Assembly (NCBI RefSeq): GCF_050737575.1
Contig: NZ_JBOHXW010000007.1
Coordinates: 20,722 to 84,721, forward strand
Direction of reading: 5' to 3'
From: Stenotrophomonas sp.
GTDB taxonomy: Bacteria > Pseudomonadota > Gammaproteobacteria > Xanthomonadales > Xanthomonadaceae
Length of the DNA stretch: 64,000 nt
Shown piece by piece: positions 9,000 to 52,925 of this stretch. The number at the start of each line of letters is the position of its first letter. Within the stretch, counting starts at the first letter, position 1. A program made the translations under genes and the position numbers. The notes beneath the pieces are model-generated. The model was not told where the DNA came from and made no database searches. It was given only the letters and a program-made list of their open reading frames with translations.

Positions 9000-10334
<1,335 letters not shown>

Positions 10335-10372
10335 GGTGCGAATTCCTGTGTCGACAAACTACGGGGAAAGAA

Positions 10373-11866
10373 TCAACCGCGGTACAGCGGCATGACGGCG
10401 TGCAGGTGCTGCAGGTAGCGCTGGTAGGCCAGCGCATAGGCCGCGCTGCGCGCGCCGTCGGGCGTGGCAGTGGCTGCGGCATCGGGGGTTACATGGGTGG
10501 CCGCGAGTGTGGCCAAGGATGCGTCGTTGCCGGCGCTGCGCTGTAATGCCCACAGCGCCTGCAGGGCGGCACCGAATGCCGCGCCTTCGGACTGCTGCGG
10601 CACTTCCACCGGCAGGCCGAATACATCGGCAACCATCTGCCGCCAGGCAGCGCTATTGCTGCCGCCACCGGTCAGCACGATGCGGTCGAAGCGCATGCCG
10701 GCGCCGACGAAGGCGTCAAAGCCGTACTTCAGTGCATAGGTCGCCCCCTCCATCGCCGCGCGGTAGAAGTGCGAGGGGGCCATGGTGGTGGTATCCAGGC
10801 CAGCCAGCACACCCTTGCCCAGCGGCAGGTCGGGGGTGCGCTCGCCATTGAGGAAGGGCAGCATCACCAGCCCATCGGCGCCCGGCGTGGTCGCATTGAT
10901 ATGCGCATCGCCGTCGCGGCTGCTGAAGCCGAACATGCGCGCCACCTGCTCGGTGACCACGGTGCAGTTCATCGTGCAGATCAGCGGCAACCAACCGCCG
11001 CTGGACGAACAGAACGCCGCCCATGCGCCACCGGCATCCACCACCGGCACATCGGAACTGGCGAACAAGGTGCCCGAAGTACCCAGGCTCATCGCCAGCT
11101 TGCCCGGCGCAACGCAGCCGGTGCCGATCGCGGCCATCATGTTGTCACCGCCGCCCGCGCCAATCTTCACCGCGGTCGGCAAGCCCAGGCGTGCTGCAGC
11201 CCCGGGCGCGATATCGAACAGGGCATCAGCGTCCACCAGTGGTGGCAGGCAGGCAGCGAGATCGCGGTTGGCATCGGTCGCCTTCAGCAGACCCGGCGAC
11301 CACTGGCGCGTGCGTACATCCAGCCAGCCTGTGCCCGAGGCATCGCCGTGCTCGCAGTAGTACTGGCCGGTCAGCACGAAGTTCAGGTAGTCGTGCGGCA
11401 GCAGGATATGCGCCAGCTTTGCGTAGGCCTCCGGCCGGTGTTTGGCCGTCCAGGGCAGCTTGGAGGCGGTGTAGCCGGCAAGGATGGGATTGCCGGCCAG
11501 TTCGATGCAGCGTTGCGCGCCGCCGGCCGCGTCCATGATCTGTGCGCATTCGGCGCTGCTGCTGGTGTCGCACCACAGCTTGGCCGGCGCCAGCACCATG
11601 CCGTCCGCATCCAACGCGACGAAGCCATGCTGCTGGCCCGACACCGCCAGCGCCTGCACCTGCTGACGCAGCTGCGGGTCGATGCGGGCGAAGCAATCCT
11701 CCATCGCCGCGACCCACGCTGCCGGATCCTGCTCGCGGCTGCCGTCATCGGCACTGTGCAGCTGCAGCGGTGCGCTGGCCGTGGTCAGCAACTGCCGCTG
11801 CGCGGCGTCGTAGACCACGACTTTCAGGCTCTGCGTGCCCGCGTCGATACCGGCGACGATGCTCAT
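10373..11866 (-). CDS. xylB: Xylulokinase (FGGY family)
   Basis: ATG at 11866 (MSIVAGIDAGTQSLK); SGQQHG, GGGDNMMAAIG, SLGTSGT, PFLNGERTP, LTGGGS motifs; adjacent to xylA. Confidence 0.95.
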   Translation of the reverse strand: MSIVAGIDAGTQSLKVVVYDAAQRQLLTTASAPLQLHSADDGSREQDPAAWVAAMEDCFARIDPQLRQQVQALAVSGQQHGFVALDADGMVLAPAKLWCDTSSSAECAQIMDAAGGAQRCIELAGNPILAGYTASKLPWTAKHRPEAYAKLAHILLPHDYLNFVLTGQYYCEHGDASGTGWLDVRTRQWSPGLLKATDANRDLAACLPPLVDADALFDIAPGAAARLGLPTAVKIGAGGGDNMMAAIGTGCVAPGKLAMSLGTSGTLFASSDVPVVDAGGAWAAFCSSSGGWLPLICTMNCTVVTEQVARMFGFSSRDGDAHINATTPGADGLVMLPFLNGERTPDLPLGKGVLAGLDTTTMAPSHFYRAAMEGATYALKYGFDAFVGAGMRFDRIVLTGGGSNSAAWRQMVADVFGLPVEVPQQSEGAAFGAALQALWALQRSAGNDASLATLAATHVTPDAAATATPDGARSAAYALAYQRYLQHLHAVMPLYRG

Positions 11867-11894
11867 GCCGCGCACCAACGGGAAGCAAGTTGAC

Positions 11895-14312
11895 TCACGC
11901 AAGACTCCATTGACCGTCGTGCAGCTGCGCGGTGATGCGCTGGCCGGCACGCAGGTCCAGTTTCAGTTCGTGGGTTTGGTAAACGAGGTTGAAGGCGCCG
12001 CCGCGTTCGGCCAGCAGGCTGACCTGCTGCAGGCGGCCTGCGCTCCACTGCAGATCGAGCACGCCGGCATTGCGCACACGCACGCCCTGCAAGCTTCCCT
12101 GCGCCAGTTCGGCCGGCAGCGCAGGCAGCAGGAACACCGCCCCGCCCCAGCTCTGCACCAGCATCTCGACGATGCCGGCGGCGCCACCGAAATTGCCGTC
12201 GATCTGGAACGGCGGATGTGCGTCGAACAGGTTTGGATAGCTGCGCTGCGGTGCCAGCAGCAGGCGCAGGATCTGCAGGCAACGCTGGCCTTCGCCCAGC
12301 CGCGCCCACAGGTTCAGGCGCCAGGCGATGCCCCAGCCGGTCGCTTCGTCACCGCGCAGTTCCAGGGTGCGGCGTGCGGCGGCGCTGAGCTCGGGTGTGT
12401 CGCGGCGGTTGATCTGGCTGGACGGGTGCAGGCCGTACAGATGCGAGACGTGACGATGGTGCAGTTCCGGCGCCTGCATGTCCCAATCCTGCTGCCATTC
12501 CATCAGCTGGCCGGCGCGACCGACCCGGTTCGGCGGCAGCTGCGCACGCAGCGTGTCCAGTTGTGCGGCGAAGGCGTGATCGGTATCGAGCAGGCGAGCG
12601 GCTTCGATGCATTGGCCGAACAGGTCGCGTAGCAGCTGCGCATCCATGGTCGGCCCGGCGCAGATCGCCGCGCCGTGCGGATGCTGGTTCTCCGGCGAGA
12701 TCGACGGCACCGTGACCTGGTGGCCGGTGTTCGGATCGCGCTGCAGGCTGTTGACGAAGAACAGCGCCGCGCCCTTGAACAGCGGCCAGACCTGGCGCAG
12801 GTAAGCCGGGTCGCGGCCATAGTCCCAGCGGTCCCACAGCTGCTGCAGCAGCCACGCGCCGCCAGTCGGCCACAGTGCCCACTGCGCGCCATCGGGCGGC
12901 GTGCTGACGCGCCACAGGTCGGTGTTGTTGTGCACCACCCAGCCATCGACGCCGTACATTTGCTGCGCGGTGAGCGCGCCGCTGCGGGCCAGTTCGCCGA
13001 TCATCCGCTGCAAGGGCTCCACGCATTCGGGCAAGGCCGCCGCTTCGGCCGGCCAGTAGTTCATCTGCGTGTTGATGTTGAGCGTGTACTTGCTCTCCCA
13101 CGGCGGGTCCATCAGATCGTTCCAGATGCCCTGCAGGTTGGCCGGCTGGGTGCCGGGACGCGAGCTGCAGATCAACAGGTAACGGGCATAGGCGTGGTAC
13201 AGCGCGACCAGTGCCGGATCATCACCGCTGGCAAAGGCCGCGATGCGTTCGTCGGTAGGCTTGTCGGCGGCAACAGTGCGGCCCAGGTCCAGGCGCATGC
13301 GCCGGTACAGGCGCTGGTGTTCGGCCAGGTGATCGGCGCGCAGCTGCGCGGCGCTTCTGCCTGCGGCCTTGGACAACTGTGCGGCGGTGATCGCTTCCGG
13401 ATCGCCGCCGACGTCATCGAAGGCGCGGTAGCTGGTGGCGGCGACCAGTCGCAGTTCCAGCTCACGCACGCCGTCGAAGGCGATGTGATCGGTGTTGATA
13501 TGCAGCTTGCCGCCAACGTGGCGTACCTGCACACGGAACGCAAAACGCAGCTTGCCGGGCACACCGTCGCGCGACACGTTGTGGCCGCTGACCAGCCAAC
13601 CATCGTCGGTGGCCGTCGTACTGGTTGCGTGCTCGTTGGCGGTGCGGAAGAAACCGCCCATCGGCTCGCCGTCTTCCACGGTGTAGCGCAACACCAGGCA
13701 TTGATCGACCGGCGAGATGAATACCTCGCGGCGATGCAGGCCGGCACCGGCGCGGAAGCTGGTGCGGGCAATGGCCTCATCCAGATCCAGCTCACGGCGG
13801 TAATCGCTGATGCCTTCCAGGCGATGGAACTCCAGCCACAGGTTGCCCAGCGGCTGGTACGGCATCTGTTTGACCGGCCGCGAGATCAGCGTCTCGTTGG
13901 CCAGCGCCTCGGCGGCGGCATAGTCGCCGGCGAAGACCAGCTCACGCACGCGCTGCACGCTGTCGCGCGCACGCGGGTTGACCGCGCTGTATGGGCCACC
14001 GGCATAGAGCGTGTCTTCATTGAGTTGCAGGCGCTCGTTGGCGACGCCACCGAACACCATCGCGCCAAGCCGGCCATTGCCCAGCGGCAAGGCCTCCACC
14101 CAGCTGCGCGCCGGCTGCCGGTACCACAGCAGGTCAGCGGCCGACGCCGCGACTTTCGGCGTCGCGGCCTGCAGCATGCCGGCCAGCGGCAGGTTGCCGA
14201 CGGCCAGCGCGGCCGCCGCGCCCTTGAACAGCGCACGGCGGCCGGGCTGTGCCAGCCCGGCGCTTTCAGTGGTCATCCCGACGACCGGGGCAGGACCGTT
14301 TGCAGCGTTCAT
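11895..14312 (-). CDS. GH95 alpha-1,2-L-fucosidase (Tat-exported)
   Basis: ATG 14312 with GGAG RBS; twin-arginine GRRALFKG; ALPLGNGRLGAMVFG, LQLNEDTL, YTLNINTQMNYW, HRHVSHL, PFQIDGNFG motifs. Confidence 0.92.
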   Translation of the reverse strand: MNAANGPAPVVGMTTESAGLAQPGRRALFKGAAAALAVGNLPLAGMLQAATPKVAASAADLLWYRQPARSWVEALPLGNGRLGAMVFGGVANERLQLNEDTLYAGGPYSAVNPRARDSVQRVRELVFAGDYAAAEALANETLISRPVKQMPYQPLGNLWLEFHRLEGISDYRRELDLDEAIARTSFRAGAGLHRREVFISPVDQCLVLRYTVEDGEPMGGFFRTANEHATSTTATDDGWLVSGHNVSRDGVPGKLRFAFRVQVRHVGGKLHINTDHIAFDGVRELELRLVAATSYRAFDDVGGDPEAITAAQLSKAAGRSAAQLRADHLAEHQRLYRRMRLDLGRTVAADKPTDERIAAFASGDDPALVALYHAYARYLLICSSRPGTQPANLQGIWNDLMDPPWESKYTLNINTQMNYWPAEAAALPECVEPLQRMIGELARSGALTAQQMYGVDGWVVHNNTDLWRVSTPPDGAQWALWPTGGAWLLQQLWDRWDYGRDPAYLRQVWPLFKGAALFFVNSLQRDPNTGHQVTVPSISPENQHPHGAAICAGPTMDAQLLRDLFGQCIEAARLLDTDHAFAAQLDTLRAQLPPNRVGRAGQLMEWQQDWDMQAPELHHRHVSHLYGLHPSSQINRRDTPELSAAARRTLELRGDEATGWGIAWRLNLWARLGEGQRCLQILRLLLAPQRSYPNLFDAHPPFQIDGNFGGAAGIVEMLVQSWGGAVFLLPALPAELAQGSLQGVRVRNAGVLDLQWSAGRLQQVSLLAERGGAFNLVYQTHELKLDLRAGQRITAQLHDGQWSLA

Positions 14313-44306: not shown

Positions 44307-44726
44307 ATGAGCATTGACCTTACTCCTCTGAATCTCCGAGAGCTCAACACTCTCATCCGCACCGCCCAGGCAACGCACAAAGCACTCGTCAGCCGCCCAC
44401 CGGCCGAGAAAGTCCGGCGCCAGTTGATCGCCGCCGCCAAGCGCGCTGGCTACACGATTGACGAAGTCTTCGGCCTGGACGCAGACCAGGCGCAACCCAA
44501 GACCAAGGCCACCCGCCGCCGCAAAGGCCCCAAGGTCAAGCCGAAATACCGCGACCCGGAAAACCGCTGGAACACCTGGACCGGCCGCGGAAAGATGCCC
44601 CTCTGGCTCGCCTCAAAAGTCCGCTTCGGCCACAACCCGACCGACTTCCTGATACCCGGCGTCGCCAAGCTCACCCCGAAAGAGAAAGTCCTGACGGGAA
44701 AGCGGAAGTTGTTCAAGCAGGGTTGA
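44307..44726 (+). CDS. H-NS-family nucleoid-associated protein (XrvA-like)
   Basis: ATG 44307; KYRDPENRWNTWTGRGKMPLWL is the H-NS DNA-binding signature; N-terminal IDLTPLNLREL coiled coil. Confidence 0.9.
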   Translation: MSIDLTPLNLRELNTLIRTAQATHKALVSRPPAEKVRRQLIAAAKRAGYTIDEVFGLDADQAQPKTKATRRRKGPKVKPKYRDPENRWNTWTGRGKMPLWLASKVRFGHNPTDFLIPGVAKLTPKEKVLTGKRKLFKQG

Positions 44727-44739
44727 TCGGGAAACAAAA

Positions 44740-44768
44740 AAGCAACCAGACGGGGAGTCTGGTTGCTT
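44740..44768. terminator. Bidirectional rho-independent terminator
   Basis: AAGCAACCAGAC-GGGGA-GTCTGGTTGCTT with A/T tails, between convergent genes. Confidence 0.8.
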
Positions 44769-44908
44769 CCTTAATTTTTCGCGCGGAAAAGTTAGCCGCT
44801 ATCAAACTCGTCGCAAAAAAAACTCAACCCTGATCTGCACACCAGCATCCTTGCGCGGCTCACAAATAGATTCGAGAGCTTCTCTAGAGCGTGCATGGAA
44901 AATTTAAT

Positions 44909-47900
44909 CTAGACGCCTTTCCAGAATCGCTCAACCTCCACTCTCCCTGAATCTCTATCCACCATTTCCTCGACAGGAATATTGAATGTAAGCCTTACCT
45001 TTGCTTTTCCCGAGGTAGCGAGAGGCTCCAAACGTGCTGCGCCACTATCGACAAGGGCGCTCACAAATCGCGTCCACATGTCCCCGTCATAATGATTTAT
45101 CCAAGATAACCGATGATCGTCGGCGACTTTAGTTTCCCTATCGATAATCACCGGGACGTCAGGGCGCCTTATCAAACGAGTCAAATAGTGAAGCGAAGCT
45201 ACAATAATCTCGCCATCGGACGAATCAATACTCCCACTCAAAATACCAGCATCGTGAAGTATCCTCGCCACCTGCGCTGGTGTATCAGCAAAGGAGGAGC
45301 CAATCTTCAGAGATGATATTGATGCACAATCCCCCCCTTTCAACACTCTCTTTGCTACGACTGAAGAAGGCACTTCCAAGTATTCGATAGTAGCTCCCGA
45401 CACTATCACCTCGCCTTCAGAATTATCAGAAATACCGAGATGCGATATAACACTTCTGGAGAGGTCAATAGATGTCCAGCCACCGTCAGCTAAAACAACG
45501 CTGTTCATAGCCAAACCGCGCGCTGATGGAGTCGGCGGAATTCCGTTACCGAAGTTCAAAAGCGACTCCCAAAGTGCACCAAGATTTGAGGACGCCGCCT
45601 GATTTCCAGCCTCCCCCTTCAGTTCAAATGACATTTTACTTGAGAGGATCTTCGCAGATTCAGGGTATCTTTTTATTAGCCATTCAAATACTGCGGAATT
45701 TATATTGCTGGCTGCCAAAAGGCTAAATAAAGACTTCTCATTGAAAACCCCGGAAACTCGACGCTGAATTGCCAGCAGCAAAAAACAATCAAACAAAACT
45801 TCATGAGAAAAACCGAATTGATTCTGTCCATTTTTATCAGGCCTCACCCCAAGACCGCCTAGTGATGAAAGTCGCCTTGAGAGCCCAGGCCTCACTTCGT
45901 CAAGCGGCTCACCAACCACCATCTTCGCACAAGCCACAAGCTCTGATAGTTCGAGCTCCCTACTCTTTGAACTCTGCATCAAATCAGCCACATCCGAGAA
46001 TAGCTCTCTTAACTCCCCAGTACTTAGTAGCTCCTCAGAGGTCTGGGTTCGAAGCTTGTGCGATTCTCGATCTAAAAATTGCTCGACGACAATCTCATAC
46101 ATTGAGGGAGCGTGCCGCGGAGTGTCAGCATTCCGTTCGATCCAAGCAGCAAAAGCTTTCGCGAAGAATGGCACGCCAAGTACGCCCCAATCATTCGCAG
46201 TAAGCATCTTGATTCGATCAACCCCGACCCCCATTTGCTTTAGATATTTTTCCGACTCATTTCTTTTCCATGGCTGCAATTCGACAAGCGTATGATCCAC
46301 ATTAAGATCAACTGCAGACGCAAGTGATCTTCTGTACTGGGTTAAGTAGTATGAAGACCTCGCTGATGCGACTAATACTCCTCGCCCACCAAGCTCTCTA
46401 AACCAGGGTTCGAGGGAGCCCAGCGCGTTTTCGTATCCACTGCTTCCCAAAAGCTCATCGAATCCGTCCACCATCAGCACCAGAAGTCCATTTCGACACA
46501 AAGCCTTTGCGCTGTGACTTGAGAGGACTTTAGTGATATTCAACGCGCTATCAACTGCATCCTCCAAGCTGGAAAGCGTCCTACCTGTCGATGAGACAAA
46601 AAGATAAAGCGGACATTGGCGCGTCGGATCTTCAGCGATGAGCCTTGAGCGCTCTTTCGCCAACCCCAGCATTAATTCCGTTTTTCCTAGCCCGGCTTGC
46701 CCAACCAAGAAGAAAACCGACGTTGACGGTTTCATGGTCTGACAAGCATCGTCGATTCGCACTCCTAGTTCAAAAAATTTGGAACCGTCAATCAACTCAG
46801 GACCAAGTGTGGACTCTTGCATTTCTCTGAGTATCGAAGGACCCCGCACCGGGGAGGTACCTTGAATCCCTAGACGTGACGACTCTTCCGCCTCTCGCCG
46901 CTGATCTAGCGCAGATAGACCCATGCCTATACGGCGGGCAAGCAGCTCCCACTTTGAAACGCTCTTAAGAAATTCAGAATACGATCGCCACTCGCCCTGA
47001 CTCGCCTCCCATTCCCTACGATGATCAAGCCCAATACGGAAGGCATCGATTCTCGGTTCGTTACCTTCGCTTGTTGATCTTGTCCAAGGAATGTGAAGAT
47101 AGCCCGTCCGCTCATCATCACCGAAAAAGAAACTAGGCCTCGAATAATCTTCCGTATATGCGGCAACGTCAGCCAGAGTATCTGTTACAAGCTTCGCCAA
47201 ATCCTGATTTGGATTGCCTTTTTCGGAAAGAAACAGCCTTCTGAAGCGAGCAACGAGCTCGGAATTTCGCTCAAGCCAAAGCTCTCCATCAGATCCGAAA
47301 TAATGTATGGTATCGTCGGCAAAGTGAGAGAAGACACCTAAATTTATTCTGGAAGAATGTGCGACCCACAGAGGCGAGACCTCGAAGGTGGCCGCCCCTT
47401 CATCTCCAACCAGCCAAAGCCGACCATCTTGCTCGCTAACGCCAACGATCGAAAGTTGCGTTGAGAGCGATCTTTCAAGACAAGATATGAGTGCCGAGAC
47501 CGCTAGCGATATTTTCTGACGCATTCCGTCATCTGACGGCAGCGTCCCGCCATGTGAAAGCCGGTCCCGCAAAGATTTAAAGTTACTGTATTTATTAGCC
47601 ACCCTGAAGGCATCTACCCCCTTGATGGCATCCACAGATAGCGCGCGCAACATTGAACTAACCCAAGCTGTTGCAGGCTCATCAACTAGTTTTGATCCTT
47701 GACGAAGCACCGCTAACATTGACCCAAATCCGGGCACCGGAAGCAACTTAACCGATGCACCTTGCTGCCTTCTATTAAATGAAATAAGAAGCGTGTAAAT
47801 AACTCTAACGTGGAAGTCGATCAGCGCGATTGCCTCCCGCACGTCTACTTCATCGTTTGAGCGTTTCACTCTGAAATTTGAAAGGACGGGAGCTAACAAC

Positions 47901-47923
47901 TCAAAAGCATTTATTGATTTCAT
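44909..47923 (-). CDS. NACHT/STAND NTPase with an N-terminal HEPN-like domain; candidate anti-phage NLR-like protein
   Basis: 1004 aa, AT-rich relative to flanks; R119-DRLS-H124; Walker A GQAGLGKT (408-415); Walker B LMVDGFDE (483-490); sensor ASARSSY; GVPF; FSHEVLFD. Confidence 0.8.
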   Translation of the reverse strand: MKSINAFELLAPVLSNFRVKRSNDEVDVREAIALIDFHVRVIYTLLISFNRRQQGASVKLLPVPGFGSMLAVLRQGSKLVDEPATAWVSSMLRALSVDAIKGVDAFRVANKYSNFKSLRDRLSHGGTLPSDDGMRQKISLAVSALISCLERSLSTQLSIVGVSEQDGRLWLVGDEGAATFEVSPLWVAHSSRINLGVFSHFADDTIHYFGSDGELWLERNSELVARFRRLFLSEKGNPNQDLAKLVTDTLADVAAYTEDYSRPSFFFGDDERTGYLHIPWTRSTSEGNEPRIDAFRIGLDHRREWEASQGEWRSYSEFLKSVSKWELLARRIGMGLSALDQRREAEESSRLGIQGTSPVRGPSILREMQESTLGPELIDGSKFFELGVRIDDACQTMKPSTSVFFLVGQAGLGKTELMLGLAKERSRLIAEDPTRQCPLYLFVSSTGRTLSSLEDAVDSALNITKVLSSHSAKALCRNGLLVLMVDGFDELLGSSGYENALGSLEPWFRELGGRGVLVASARSSYYLTQYRRSLASAVDLNVDHTLVELQPWKRNESEKYLKQMGVGVDRIKMLTANDWGVLGVPFFAKAFAAWIERNADTPRHAPSMYEIVVEQFLDRESHKLRTQTSEELLSTGELRELFSDVADLMQSSKSRELELSELVACAKMVVGEPLDEVRPGLSRRLSSLGGLGVRPDKNGQNQFGFSHEVLFDCFLLLAIQRRVSGVFNEKSLFSLLAASNINSAVFEWLIKRYPESAKILSSKMSFELKGEAGNQAASSNLGALWESLLNFGNGIPPTPSARGLAMNSVVLADGGWTSIDLSRSVISHLGISDNSEGEVIVSGATIEYLEVPSSVVAKRVLKGGDCASISSLKIGSSFADTPAQVARILHDAGILSGSIDSSDGEIIVASLHYLTRLIRRPDVPVIIDRETKVADDHRLSWINHYDGDMWTRFVSALVDSGAARLEPLATSGKAKVRLTFNIPVEEMVDRDSGRVEVERFWKGV

Positions 47924-48401
47924 TTTTTAATAGTCCTTTACTAGCTCGCAGCCAGCGGGCCTGCTCACGCATTGACTGTAGCGACATAAGCAGCTCGTTT
48001 CACACGGCATGCCCCGCCCAATTTCCCAGAATGATAGGTGAATCGATCAGCAACTTGTAGACAATCGTCATCCATAGACACTGCAGGCCTGATTTGCTCT
48101 CGTCGCAACTTGATAGAAACGCGCTTTCCCTCCCCTAAGCTCCCACCGTCGCTTCTTTGCTGATTCAGCTTGACATCGCCGCCACATAAGCGGCGGCGGC
48201 AGAAGCAACATAGCGGACAAAGCGCAATTGCCAGACGTCTGACCACAAACAAACCATCTTGAAACAGCGTATAGAGTCGGCATTTCTGCCGACCCTTTCG
48301 CTTGAACATCCGCCCACAAGCCATAGCCAGAATCGAGCTTGTCAAACAGCCCACATGATCTATCAATCTTTGCGGCTATCGAATGTGCCCGCAGACGCCA
48401 C

Positions 48402-49679: not shown

Positions 49680-50011
49680 GCAGGCTTCCTCAAGCGGGCG
49701 ATGGGTGTATGCAGATGGCGAAGAACGCAGCGGGCGTTCTGCACGAATTCAAAGCTTAAGGATTGCCGCCGTGGGAAGGTCAAGCGGATTTGTTGCGCCA
49801 CTTTGAGAAGCGTTGACTGGCACTGACCTGCGAAGCAGGTGTTCGCTACAAAACAGAAGGCCGACATTTCTGCCGGCCTTCTGCGTGAACAGCTATCAAC
49901 GTTGTTGGTCTGGTGCATTCAACTCAAGGGCAGCTGGCATCAGCGTAGCGTTTGGTGAGTTCTCAACACGGCTCTGATGCCGGCTTCTCATTTTCTTCCC
50001 ATATCCGTTAG

Positions 50012-50761
50012 CTATTTCCATATCTCAGTCGTGATGAAGCCGTAGTCTCTGCTGTTGCAAGCCTCAATGCTTGCAATGCCTTCATGCATACCAAGCGACA
50101 GCAATCCCGTTCCACAGACAACGGCACGAGATGCCCAGAGCCACCTCTGACGGTGAGAGGATTCGCCCACTGTACAGCCGGGAAGAAAGTTAGCTCTCCA
50201 GCTGACAATTGCCCCGCCCTCCTCCCACTCTGCGTCCGCATGTACGGCAAACCCGCCAGGATCGCCGCGATAAACCGAGCCTGGGCCATCCATCACGATA
50301 CTCATCGTCGCACCACAGAAAGCACGTGCGGCACTAGCGGCAGGGCTTACGGCCTCATTCCTCCTTGACTTCGCACCTTCCGATAGGGAGCTTCCTCCGC
50401 AGGCAAGCAATGCCTGTGCGTCTTTCGTAAGCGTAGCGATGCCGGTACGGACAACCTCGCCGCCGAACTTGGAACAATACTTATCGAGTTTTGTCAGCGT
50501 ACTCTCAGGCTGGCGCGATGCGTCCAGCTCCAGCATTCCATCAGGTCGTACCGCGTGTATCAGCTCAACGTAGTCACCATTTTCAAGCTGATACGTGCGC
50601 AGCAGCGTTGCTGACGTCCTAGCCAGCGAGACATCGCTGGATGTCGTCTCTGACACCAGCTTGAACGAACCCCACATAGGCGTCTTCCCGTTCTGTGCAG
50701 CAGAAGCCATCGCGATGGAGAGAAGAAAAATTGCTGCAGAACTGTTCTTGAGATTCAACAT
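50012..50761 (-). CDS. Hypothetical exported protein
   Basis: ATG 50761 with AGGA RBS; signal-peptide-like AAIFLLSIAMASA; several Cys; no recognised family. Confidence 0.5.
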   Translation of the reverse strand: MLNLKNSSAAIFLLSIAMASAAQNGKTPMWGSFKLVSETTSSDVSLARTSATLLRTYQLENGDYVELIHAVRPDGMLELDASRQPESTLTKLDKYCSKFGGEVVRTGIATLTKDAQALLACGGSSLSEGAKSRRNEAVSPAASAARAFCGATMSIVMDGPGSVYRGDPGGFAVHADAEWEEGGAIVSWRANFLPGCTVGESSHRQRWLWASRAVVCGTGLLSLGMHEGIASIEACNSRDYGFITTEIWK

Positions 50762-51119
50762 GTCTTGTCCTTGAATTGCTGAACTTTCTTGTATGAAGCG
50801 CGCGCGAATGCGTCCTTGCAAGTACAGTCGGACTGCCAAACAAAGGCTTGATTGACCGTAAATGCATCCTCACCCTAGCGATATAGTTCACTGAAGAACG
50901 GTGAGCGATGTCTCACTAGCTGCCCGCCGGGGAAAACTCTGAATAGCTCCACGCTGATGCCGAATCACCGCGCCTAACGGGAGCACCCTAGTCGCGGCAC
51001 AACGGACGTTTCTTCGCACCGAACAACAAGGCCGACGCGGGCAAGAACGGGCGTCGGCATGGAGTTCGCCGAGTGCTCAACATGACTCTGATCGGGGTTT
51101 CTAGCGGACCTTCCCGACA

Positions 51120-51647
51120 TCAACTGCCTTCCATGTCATCCGTGAGCAAGAGGATGTAAGGCTCACATCGCTCGTCGCGGCAGCCCAGATATCTGATCTC
51201 GTCTCCGCTGGTCAATGTGACCACGCCACCACCGTTGATCACGAAACGCCAGCGCCGCTCTTCCATCGTGGCTTCTCCAGAGATGGAACACGGAAGCTGA
51301 TAGAAGTTGCTGTGCGGCGCGGTCTCGTAGCGCTCGCTCAGTACAAACAGTTCCCGCACTTGGCTTGGGGACAGTGTCCACGCTGCACATTCGGGTTCGA
51401 GCATGTCGCCGGCTTTCCCGGTGTAGCTTGCGGCAGAAACGCGGATATTCAGAACGTCGTGATCTTGCCGGGAAGCAGAAACTGGGCTGCACGAAAGGAG
51501 GCAACCCATCAGCAGAAGATGGGGAGTACAGGTCACCGCCTTCACCAGGCGGTTTGCATGGAAGAATTTTCCGGCTGATGGCGTCGCGGTGATGATTGAG
51601 CCACCACCTGTCGTTCTATCGCCAAGCACACTCCATAACTTCGCCAT
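51120..51647 (-). CDS. Cys-containing putative lipoprotein whose frame starts with a PAAR-like fragment
   Basis: MAKLWSVLGDRTTGGGSIITATP resembles the PAAR N terminus; later LLLMGCLLSC lipobox-like segment and a Cys-containing domain (CAAW, LPCSISG, LGC..RC). Confidence 0.5.
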   Translation of the reverse strand: MAKLWSVLGDRTTGGGSIITATPSAGKFFHANRLVKAVTCTPHLLLMGCLLSCSPVSASRQDHDVLNIRVSAASYTGKAGDMLEPECAAWTLSPSQVRELFVLSERYETAPHSNFYQLPCSISGEATMEERRWRFVINGGGVVTLTSGDEIRYLGCRDERCEPYILLLTDDMEGS

Positions 51648-51947
51648 TCAACACCCGGAGTTTTGACTGTCGTGAAGCACTCGATGGTAGTCATGCGAAC
51701 GCGCCGATCGTTGCGCACCTGCCATGGGAGTTGTCGTCATCAATCAACCCGAGCGACCAATAGGAATTTTCTTAGTCGGCTTCGGTGCTGCACTTGCTTG
51801 ATCTGGATCGGAAGCGATGGGTGCGTGAATCCGACCGGCCGGCTTTTTTTCAGAAAGCAAAACGCCGGCATCTCTGCCGGCGCTTGCTTGAACACCTATC
51901 AATGTTTTTGGTGTGAAGCATTCACCTCAACATCACCGCATCAGAAC

Positions 51948-52925
51948 TCAGGGACGCAACAACACCTTCCCATTCTTGCCCGGCTGCAGACTCGCCTTCG
52001 CCGCTTCCGCTGCATCGGCCAGGTCGTAAATCCCCTGCACGGGCAGTGCCAGCTCACCGCTCATCACGCGCGTCAGCAGTTCGCCGACCAGTCGGCGCTT
52101 GTTCTCCACCGACATCTGTTGGCTGACCTTGCTGCCCCAGAAGCCCTTGACCGTGGCCTGCTTGAAGATGACGTCGCCGGACGGGATCAGCATCGGTTCG
52201 CCTGTCATGCTGCCGAACGACACCAGCGTGCCGTTTTCGCCGAGCAGCGACAGCAGGTCCGCGCTTGCCTGGCCGCCGATGGAATCGACGGCGGCGTGTG
52301 CAAGTGCGTCACCGAGCAATGCGTGGGCGCGCTGCTTCCAGTCGGCCTGCTCGGTGGACAGTACGTTGTCGATGCCCAGTGCCTTGAGTTCTTCAACGCC
52401 GGCATCGCGGCGCACCAGGCCTAGCACCTGCACGCCGCGTGCGGCGGCGAGCATCGCCAGAGTCTTGCCGACCGCGCCGTTGGCGGTGTTCTGCACAATC
52501 CATTGGCCGGGCTCGGCCTGCAGGAATTCCAGCAGCATCAGCGCGCTGAGCGGCATGGCGATCAACTGCGCCGCCGCTTCGTCGGCGATGGCGTCCGGCA
52601 CGGGGATGACCATGCGCGCCGGTGCGATGAAGTGCTCCGCCCAGGTGCCGTGTACCGAGGCGGCCATCACGCGCTGGCCGATGGCGATGCCTTCGACGCC
52701 CTCGCCCACGGCATCAACGGTGCCTACTGCTTCACTGCCGCCGATGGCCGGCAGTGTGGGCTTATAGCCGTACTTGCCACGGATGGTCCACAGGTCGTGG
52801 TTGTGGATGGGCGCGAGGATCGTCTTGATCCGCACTTCGCCCGGGCCGGGCTGCGGCACCGGGCTGTCGCCCAGGGCCAGCACGTCGGTCGGTTCACCAA
52901 AGGTGGTGTGGATGGCGCTTCGCAT
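51948..52925 (-). CDS. MDR-family NADPH:quinone / enoyl reductase
   Basis: PIHNHDLW, GSEAVG, GTWAE, AMPLSA, NTANGAVG, GKVLL motifs; no catalytic Zn ligands seen. Confidence 0.88.
   Translation of the reverse strand: MRSAIHTTFGEPTDVLALGDSPVPQPGPGEVRIKTILAPIHNHDLWTIRGKYGYKPTLPAIGGSEAVGTVDAVGEGVEGIAIGQRVMAASVHGTWAEHFIAPARMVIPVPDAIADEAAAQLIAMPLSALMLLEFLQAEPGQWIVQNTANGAVGKTLAMLAAARGVQVLGLVRRDAGVEELKALGIDNVLSTEQADWKQRAHALLGDALAHAAVDSIGGQASADLLSLLGENGTLVSFGSMTGEPMLIPSGDVIFKQATVKGFWGSKVSQQMSVENKRRLVGELLTRVMSGELALPVQGIYDLADAAEAAKASLQPGKNGKVLLRP

Follow-up and report, generated by a model that had tools for sequence, protein, structure and literature searches.

The 64,000-nucleotide stretch analysed here (the window), from contig NZ_JBOHXW010000007.1 of a Stenotrophomonas sp., carries on its minus strand a single gene for a large protein with a NACHT/STAND nucleotide-binding switch at its centre. 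The gene is an open reading frame (ORF) that starts with ATG and runs uninterrupted for 1004 codons. A homolog search returned 121 matches, of which ~116 are full length and collinear over ~1000 amino acids (aa), and on this ground the gene is considered real. An AlphaFold2 (AF2) model of the full 1004-aa protein, computed from an alignment of 85 sequences, has a mean predicted local distance difference test (pLDDT) score of 86. The gene and its parts are laid out below, where the sister family is a group of shorter relatives considered further on:

44909–47923, minus strand: the whole NACHT/STAND gene, 1004 aa, with its stop codon at 44909–44911.
47450–47923, minus strand: an all-helical, HEPN-like head (aa 1–158), the putative effector, drawn from an AF2 model of the domain alone.
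47549–47569, minus strand: the Rx4H motif R-D-R-L-S-H-G of the head (aa 119–125), with a polar residue after the arginine.
47210–47449, minus strand: a beta-rich, family-specific subdomain (aa 159–238), with AF2 strands at 160–218, absent from the sister family.
46868–47209, minus strand: a pre-NACHT domain (aa 239–352), common to the sister family.
46229–46738, minus strand: the NACHT nucleotide-binding domain (aa 396–565), with Walker A at 46679–46702, Walker B at 46454–46477 and the sensor-1 residue R522.
45548–46228, minus strand: the helical, winged-helix and helical domains of the STAND module (aa 566–792), with P585 of the GxP-like motif and H707 of the winged-helix domain.
45239–45547, minus strand: a short pentapeptide-repeat-like beta-helix (aa 793–895), the putative sensor surface, from profile matches.
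44912–45238, minus strand: a C-terminal alpha/beta domain (aa 896–1004), part of the chassis shared with the sister family, from AF2 secondary structure.
44730–48400, no strand: a low-GC, single-gene cassette, from GC content in 200-nt bins.

The cassette is a 3.7-kb stretch (~44730–48400) made up of the NACHT gene and its 5′ and 3′ intergenic regions. Its GC content is ~0.49 compared to ~0.63 in the flanks, and the 200-nt bins lie at 0.40–0.555 inside and ~0.59–0.70 outside, as the initial annotation had indicated in calling the ORF more AT-rich than its surroundings. Since the drop in GC spans the gene and both intergenic flanks only, the cassette is a one-gene unit of foreign composition, and the NACHT gene is intact and was acquired by horizontal transfer. 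No further genes were called in the intergenic regions of the cassette. Direct repeats flanking the cassette and tRNA genes were sought as marks of insertion, and none were found, while a comparison with an empty site was impossible, the neighbouring H-NS protein having turned up only on the same contigs.

The central module is the best conserved part of the protein. Conservation was read from an alignment of 85 full-length homologs, down to ~25% identity, to which the residue counts given here refer. Within the Walker A motif (G408-Q-A410-G411-L-G413-K414-T415), A410, G411, G413, K414 and T415 are invariant, and the same is true of the entire Walker B motif (D486-G487-F488-D489-E490) and of sensor 1 (S520-A521-R522-S523). 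L582, P585 and F587 of the GxP-like motif (GVPFF) and F703, F705 and H707 of the winged-helix FSHE motif are likewise invariant. The complete STAND core proposed in the initial annotation is therefore confirmed, each of the motifs it listed being present with key residues that do not vary among the homologs. The Walker B signature D[GAS]hDE separates NACHT proteins from other STANDs (10.1101/2022.07.19.500537), and D486–E490 conforms to this signature of the NACHT clade. Pfam NACHT (PF05729) is the only Pfam match on the query, covering aa 403–563 and model positions 2–162 of 167 at 26.5 bits against a gathering threshold of 26.7 (E = 6.4e-6), and a precomputed PF05729 match is carried by most homologs. 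When the full model was compared with the PDB using Foldseek, the best match was NLRC4 (4kxf, 8.5e-11), followed by NLRP3, NAIP5, plant NRCs and Avs4 (2.9e-6), and the alignments to NLRC4 and NLRP3 extend over 600–700 columns. Judged by its motifs and its model, the central module is a member of the NACHT clade of STAND NTPases with a predicted fold of nucleotide-binding domain, helical domain 1, winged-helix domain and helical domain 2 (NBD-HD1-WHD-HD2) and with a complete catalytic set. Mean pairwise identity is highest in the nucleotide-binding domain (0.63) and lowest in the pentapeptide-like region (0.27), with 0.32 in the head; at the level of sequence, a conserved nucleotide-binding domain flanked by a variable tail and head is the usual pattern of an NLR-type immune protein.

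The head (aa 1–158), when modelled alone, is all-helical (pLDDT 91.5; predicted template modelling score 0.87), with helices at aa 6–14, 28–52, 66–76, 83–105, 115–123 and 132–157. The Rx4H motif closes helix 115–123 and opens the loop to the final helix, and R119 and H124 lie where they were first placed, at 47569–47552. R119, H124 and G125 are each found in 85 of 85 sequences, and position 120 is only ever aspartate (70 sequences) or asparagine (15), giving the consensus [FL]-K-x-h-R-[DN]-x-h-x-H-G. The motif is retained, as RNQVFHG, in more divergent actinobacterial members whose heads tblastn failed to match. E30 and D36 in helix 28–52 are conserved in at least 90% of the sequences, and helices 66–76 and 83–105, lying between this helix and the motif helix, are candidates for inserts. 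HEPN domains have been described as having helix 3 close with an Rx4-6H motif, in which a polar residue after the arginine takes part in catalysis; an acidic residue lies upstream, and helices 2 and 3 may be separated by helical inserts that vary (PMC3710099). An Rx4-6H motif followed by a polar residue, as defined for HEPN, is present in the head, and the position of the motif, the acidic residue and the predicted order of helices fit the published description. Absolute conservation of R119, H124 and G125, together with the restriction of position 120 to D or N, in a domain that averages 32% identity indicates either catalysis or the binding of a specific ligand.

Profile searches of the head against Pfam, using 23 members, gave sub-threshold matches to three HEPN families, HEPN_RiboL-PSP (E = 0.011), HEPN_Swt1 (E = 0.051) and MAE_28990 (E = 0.07), in one member each. 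The first two lie over the motif-bearing C-terminal part of the respective profiles. We use the term HEPN-like for the head because the active-site signature and helix order fit, while homology lacks a significant match; the motif and the model suggest that it probably belongs to the HEPN superfamily. Apart from the motif, the head contains a P-G-x-G loop at aa 64–67 (47723–47734), in which G65 never varies and P64 and G67 are each retained in at least 90% of the sequences, and this loop could line the putative active site.

Between the head and the ATPase lie ~250 aa that were previously left unassigned. This stretch splits into two parts, the family-specific beta-rich subdomain (aa 159–238) and the pre-NACHT domain (aa 239–352). 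A profile of aa 158–352 gave no match in Pfam or the PDB. Within the family, W280, R291, D293, F295, W305 and W325 do not vary, and D252, F256, W280, F295, Y315, F318, L319 and A329 are at least 80% conserved across 23 aligned sequences that include the sister family. The weakest full-length-type match to the query, P0117 (750 aa), aligns with aa 400–1004 through to the last residues at 27% identity (6e-33). The sister proteins are ~750 aa long, lack aa 1–238 and have N termini that start at query aa ~240; a scan of one genome per species found them in Solirubrobacterales, Planctomycetia, Latescibacterota, Elusimicrobiota, Gemmatimonadota, Acidobacteriota and Proteobacteria. Because aa 239–352 is common to this headless family, it is regarded as part of a conserved chassis, upon which aa 1–238 (the helical head and the beta-rich subdomain) is a family-specific N-terminal accretion.

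The sister loci also bear on the function of the head. At 8 of 15 of them, the NACHT gene is preceded, after a gap of a few nucleotides, by a gene of 190–250 aa in the same orientation, and at one further locus with called genes the gap between the upstream gene and the NACHT gene is 9 nt. The upstream gene is a member of the NYN domain family, as many of its 622 homologs carry a precomputed PF01936 match and some are named “NYN domain-containing protein” by NCBI. NYN domains are PIN-like RNases. Since the NYN gene adjoins the NACHT gene in these 8 loci, the head position may be viewed as an effector slot able to hold different domains, and the pairing of the sister chassis with an RNase-family gene gives the best indirect reason for seeing the head as an effector with RNA cleavage as its output. 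Neither a head, an NYN partner nor any other conserved neighbour is seen at 7 of the 15 loci. The possibility that the upstream gene is a split-off copy of the head was ruled out, since hmmsearch found no similarity between the two and the gene encodes an NYN-domain protein.

The two-gene operon, consisting of NYN followed by NACHT, pentapeptide and C-terminal domains, was observed at loci L075, L077, L081, L082, L085, L087, L088, L092 and L095 and is widespread, occurring in Gemmatimonadota, Holophagales, Latescibacterota, Elusimicrobiota and proteobacterial metagenome-assembled genomes. It was found neither in the accessible part of the bNACHT catalogue nor in the literature searched, and may represent an undescribed NLR-type system. 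Two sister paralogs ~14 kb apart in a member of the Solirubrobacterales (L062 and L066, both on OY969562.1) have no NYN partner.

At the other end of the protein, the initial judgement that the C terminus is neither TPR nor WD40 was right, and the beta-rich part of it (aa ~793–880) is pentapeptide-repeat-like. A profile of aa 770–1004 matches 6xi1 (1.9e-5), Qnr (3pss, 3.1e-4) and MfpA (0.028) over profile positions ~24–98, and also McbG-like proteins and designed beta-helices, in all covering aa ~793–870. The AF2 model has a ladder of short strands at aa 805–880, as such repeats would predict. Pfam Pentapeptide_4 is detected in 3 of 24 members (best E = 1.4e-4) and the query itself falls below detection, from which we take the repeat to be short and degenerate. 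In the alpha/beta domain that follows, W950 and W1001 are invariant, and W941, G972, K975, R977 and F1000 are kept in 90% or more of the sequences. Alignment with the sister family continues across this domain to the end of the protein, and the domain gave no match in Pfam or the PDB. Calling this an unusual sensor was an overstatement. Clades 9/10 of the bNACHT catalogue, in the part accessible to us, are made up of NNH3/NNH4 (NNH, “NACHT N-terminal helical”), NACHT and Pentapeptide (10.1101/2022.07.19.500537), and the next outgroup match to the query, P0118, is also NACHT plus Pentapeptide. A pentapeptide sensor is thus of a type already catalogued, and ordinary for bacterial NACHT proteins.

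The pentapeptide beta-helix is the fold with which Qnr and MfpA mimic DNA. It is conceivable, if rather doubtful, that the family and its sister share one NACHT chassis that takes either a fused Rx4H head or a separate NYN protein, with the beta-helix acting as a nucleic-acid-mimic bait for phage DNA-binding proteins. On such a reading the head would possibly be a new HEPN branch or a convergent fold. To our knowledge, sensing by a nucleic-acid-mimic bait is undescribed for NLR-like proteins.

The mechanism that we favour is that of a one-polypeptide, NLR-like abortive-infection sensor with an RNase head. At rest, the NACHT module would hold ADP, contacted by the winged-helix H707, and the protein would be monomeric and inactive. 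The C-terminal beta-helix and alpha/beta module would recognise a phage- or infection-derived cue, and nucleotide exchange at the P-loop (K414) would lead to oligomerisation, bringing the N-terminal heads (aa 1–158) together. The clustered heads would then form composite, metal-independent RNase sites from R119-D120…H124, as in dimer-activated HEPN RNases, and the resulting RNA cleavage would arrest the cell or the phage. RNase L (HEPN/KEN) is a precedent for a HEPN-type RNase activated by induced dimerisation (PMC3710099). That the protein cuts RNA, is activated by oligomerisation, senses phage and protects the host is in each case predicted by analogy with the bNACHT, Avs and HEPN families. 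We consider this mechanism in full to be reasonably probable, and the narrower claim, that the protein is a NACHT-type conflict or defence protein, is held with considerable confidence.

A number of results weigh against this reading, and those on the head come first. Foldseek of the head returned no significant neighbour, the best E values being 0.14 in the PDB and 0.23 in BFVD. The head profile gave no HEPN matches among PDB sequences, and the 80 matches that it found among 1.84 billion representatives came from its own family only, with the head domain seen in no other architecture. An hhalign comparison with one Ymh HEPN sequence (locus L002) gave a probability of 0.16% over 11 motif columns. 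The Foldseek neighbours of the head, OspC/Vsp and designed proteins, are unspecific helical bundles (E of at least 0.14) that neither confirm nor exclude HEPN, and one match of the head profile, P0182, was discarded as a low-complexity false hit. The original reading of the N terminus as a HEPN RNase is thus upheld as far as an invariant Rx4H motif in an all-helical head, but Foldseek, profile and hhalign searches provided no significant link to HEPN.

The lack of a fold or profile link to HEPN is also what would be seen if the protein were an NLR-like defence protein whose head is not an RNase. In this case aa 1–238 would be an adaptor or regulatory module like the NNH domains, recruiting or gating another effector, or the toxicity would reside elsewhere in the chassis. 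The catalogued pentapeptide-type bNACHTs do have uncharacterised helical NNH3/NNH4 domains at the same position, and the 7 sister loci with neither head nor NYN gene imply that the chassis may act without a dedicated nuclease. A non-RNase head is nevertheless difficult to reconcile with a motif in which R119, H124 and G125 are absolute and position 120 is D or N only, despite the low mean identity of the domain, with a motif position and accompanying residues that match the description of the HEPN active site, and with an RNase-family protein filling the equivalent slot in the sister. We regard it as unlikely and continue to prefer an RNase head.

Database and literature searches are also unfavourable. 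No family in PADLOC v2 (PADLOC-DB v2.0.0) matches the 1004-aa protein at E <= 1. This release covers the earlier Avs families, the bNACHT01/09-type NLR models and the PDC candidates. Searches of NCBIfam and PDB sequences with the whole protein gave only generic P-loop noise, and searches of IMG/VR viral contigs, INPHARED phages and PLSDB plasmids turned up no relatives. In the literature searched, we found no experimental work on any family member and nothing in which this family is named or tested. The accessible part of Table S1 of the bNACHT catalogue has no entry for five family accessions and for most family genera (10.1101/2022.07.19.500537). What the first annotation described as a lone NACHT/STAND gene of head-switch-tail layout is borne out by an intact gene of foreign composition that PADLOC, NCBIfam and PDB sequences do not match.

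The genomic surroundings of the homologs were examined for a link to defence. Of nine annotated places, seven are mobile-element or defence settings, and the other two are this window and Hydrogenophaga. The places are as follows:

Paraburkholderia terricola: a variable island with Ymh, ABC-3C (DUF2326-MC7-CTD11), type VI secretion effector/immunity genes and phage remnants.
Polyangiaceae (L004–L006): a cluster in which the homolog, overlapping its neighbours by 4 nt at start and stop, has a DISARM-like helicase/methylase set on one side and an AAA_21 ATPase plus HNH on the other, next to IS21 copies.
Xanthomonas: an integrase island.
Pseudomonas moraviensis: an integrase island.
Burkholderia pseudomallei: two different HK97-type prophages that carry the homolog in the same slot, between replication/regulatory genes and the HNH-terminase, beside ParE/HTH.
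Streptomyces: insertion sequence (IS) elements on the flanks.
Hydrogenophaga: a lone gene within an aromatic-catabolism cluster, which counts against a defence role.

The Polyangiaceae genes (L004–L006, 1–15701) are co-directional. Upstream of the homolog are a DEAD/MZB helicase, a SNF2 helicase and a 1336-aa N6-methylase/Eco57I protein, and it is followed by genes for an AAA_23/AAA_21 ATPase, an unknown product and an HNH_2 protein, and then by the IS21 copies. In the two B. pseudomallei loci (L011 and L012), the homolog (10001–12958) lies just upstream of the ParE/HTH (helix-turn-helix) pair, and the prophages differ in their methylases and head proteases. This slot is a typical moron or defence hotspot position.

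Settings of this kind may instead point to a mobile-element weapon or addiction module, that is, a single-gene cargo used in superinfection exclusion, inter-element competition or post-segregational killing. The shared moron slot in the two B. pseudomallei prophages, beside a ParE/HTH pair, fits such a role, as do the integrase islands, the IS-flanked sites and the single-gene, low-GC cassette in the window. The distribution is patchy, which also agrees with it: full-length copies in proteobacteria were found in only 3 among 185,579 species representatives. However, the sequenced phages, IMG/VR contigs and plasmids are without a copy, no antitoxin-like conserved neighbour was found, and the mechanism would be identical to that proposed above, since prophage-borne defence genes protect the lysogen. 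An addiction or competition module as such is therefore improbable, and a defence sensor is preferred.

The closest species-representative homolog, at 52% identity, is that of Achromobacter piechaudii NBRC 102461 (L014:10001–13009), one of the three proteobacteria just mentioned. Its reading frame is broken once, by a stop at codon 301 (GPDNR*EWR), and is otherwise full length; the copy is either a recent pseudogene or the product of a sequencing error. A nonsense mutation here is compatible with a costly gene.

A broader scan took two ORFs on each side of the homolog in 30 species-representative genomes, mostly Actinobacteria, for a total of 120 proteins, with ORFs picked longest-first. The specific matches were PtuA, SoFic, PDC-S37 (twice), MkoA (twice), WYL, REase_MTES_1575 and integrase (twice), and cross-matches to ABC-ATPases and helicases were uninformative. 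These are few specific defence neighbours among many housekeeping genes, in a count that has no background baseline, and the defence interpretation is weakened accordingly. No conserved partner gene was present among the 120 neighbours. Overall, the context of the homologs is mixed and leans to mobile or defence settings, and the association with defence islands is partial. It is clear for several proteobacterial members, absent in this window and in Hydrogenophaga, and weak in the 30 mostly actinobacterial species representatives.

The immediate neighbours in the window are metabolic, with no PADLOC matches among them, which is a further point on the unfavourable side. On one side of the NACHT gene are a convergent H-NS-family gene and then cytochrome oxidase genes; on the other are a ferredoxin-reductase-type oxidoreductase, a glutaredoxin, two unknown ORFs and a zinc-dependent alcohol dehydrogenase. 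Redox or catabolic neighbours here and in Hydrogenophaga, and the many actinobacterial neighbours that are housekeeping genes, raise the question of whether the protein is a non-immune STAND signalling ATPase, a ligand-controlled regulator like MalT or AfsR with a C-terminal alpha/beta domain that binds nucleic acid. Non-defence STAND clades are known to be interspersed with defence clades (10.64898/2026.01.04.697583). Such a regulator would be expected to keep a conserved neighbour as its target operon, and none was found; nor was a DNA-binding family detected in the C terminus. The foreign composition and sporadic distribution, the copies in prophages or defence clusters, the nuclease-like head motif and the pairing of the sister with an NYN nuclease also speak against it. 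We consider a regulatory role very unlikely, and a NACHT-type sensor in phage defence remains our interpretation.

The H-NS-family gene (44307–44726, plus strand) encodes 139 aa with a Pfam Histone_HNS match, and its stop lies 182 nt from the NACHT stop codon. One further feature falls between these convergent genes:

44740–44768, no strand: a perfect 12-bp hairpin, found in a scan for terminator-like sites (inverted repeat I8).

This hairpin is a possible shared terminator of the two genes, in a region where terminator-like sites are in total no more numerous than expected from shuffled sequence. Because H-NS proteins silence foreign DNA that is rich in AT, the adjacency may bear on expression of the NACHT gene, or it may be coincidence. 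Farther away, a second stretch of lowered GC content (49800–52000, GC 0.50–0.60) contains ORFs of 249 aa (50012–50761, minus strand) and 94 aa (51120–51404, minus strand). Pfam and PADLOC gave no match for either ORF, and a search of PDB sequences, run with the 249-aa ORF only, gave none as well. This stretch may be further foreign cargo.

If the proposed mechanism is confirmed, an RNase-type effector family would be added to the bacterial NLR repertoire. The family is invisible to current annotation, in that Pfam, NCBIfam and PADLOC name the NACHT core only, and a profile of the head would retrieve ~80 representative clusters worldwide. Burkholderia, Xanthomonas, Ralstonia, Pseudomonas and many Streptomyces are among the carriers of homologs, and in these organisms inventories of phage defence matter for phage work. 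A fused-effector family and an NYN-linked sister on one chassis provide a matched pair for studying how NACHT oligomerisation switches a nuclease in cis and in trans, and the short sensor (~210 aa) is small enough for mapping of the trigger.

Several known systems share parts of this architecture. Structurally, the central module is matched best by the animal NLRs NLRC4, NLRP3 and NAIP5, and the winged-helix histidine and the sensor-1 arginine are conserved. They differ in that identity is ~10–12% and in that the Stenotrophomonas protein has no leucine-rich repeats, CARD or PYD, its effector being fused to the switch. Avs1–24 (Gao et al., 2022; PMC13581612) work on the same principle, in which a STAND NTPase carries its effector at the N terminus and, at the C terminus, a sensor for a phage protein whose binding leads to oligomerisation and activation. 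Their sensors are mostly large TPR-like arrays of at least 400 aa, whereas the region after the NACHT module is ~210 aa here, the NTPase is of the NACHT clade, and none of the PADLOC v2 models matches the protein. The 2026 Avs survey took only sensors of at least 400 aa into its sensor clustering (PMC13581612), and a family with a sensor of ~210 aa would fall outside it.

The sister NYN-NACHT system has a homologous chassis from aa ~240 to the last residues, with the 27% identity noted above over aa 400–1004. It lacks aa 1–238, has a separate upstream NYN gene in 8 of 15 loci and occurs in different phyla. Fusions of HEPN to STAND or NACHT modules were already known, and for this reason the initial description of an undescribed system was too strong. 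Swt1-type HEPN, STAND and TPR/S1 fusions were described in 2013 (PMC3710099), and HEPN is among the bNACHT effectors published in 2022, where the accessible part of the catalogue includes a HEPN, NACHT and NCH2 protein of clade 6 from Thioflexithrix (10.1101/2022.07.19.500537). As in our family, an N-terminal helical domain with an Rx4-6H motif sits on a STAND NTPase and is predicted to act as an RNase effector that the switch releases. Unlike the head described here, their HEPN domains are recognisable by existing profiles, and their sensors are NCH2, TPR or S1, while our family has an extra beta-rich and pre-NACHT region.

In the type of sensor and in overall layout, the family is most similar to bNACHT clades 9/10 (10.1101/2022.07.19.500537). 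These are single genes with a NACHT domain carrying D[GAS]hDE, a head-switch-sensor layout, an N-terminal region of ~220–250 aa before the NACHT domain and C-terminal repeats of pentapeptide type, and P0118 is the nearest relative with a Pfam-annotated repeat outside of the family and its sister. Unlike clades 9/10, the head of this family consists of an Rx4H motif domain and a beta-rich subdomain with no annotated NNH, and its pentapeptide stretch of ~4 coils is followed by a distinct alpha/beta domain. The family is thus most likely an uncharacterised family of the known bNACHT class of anti-phage proteins. What it adds to that class is modest, namely a head unrecognised by current profiles and fold searches, and a relation with the NYN-linked sister in which the putative RNase is either fused or separate.

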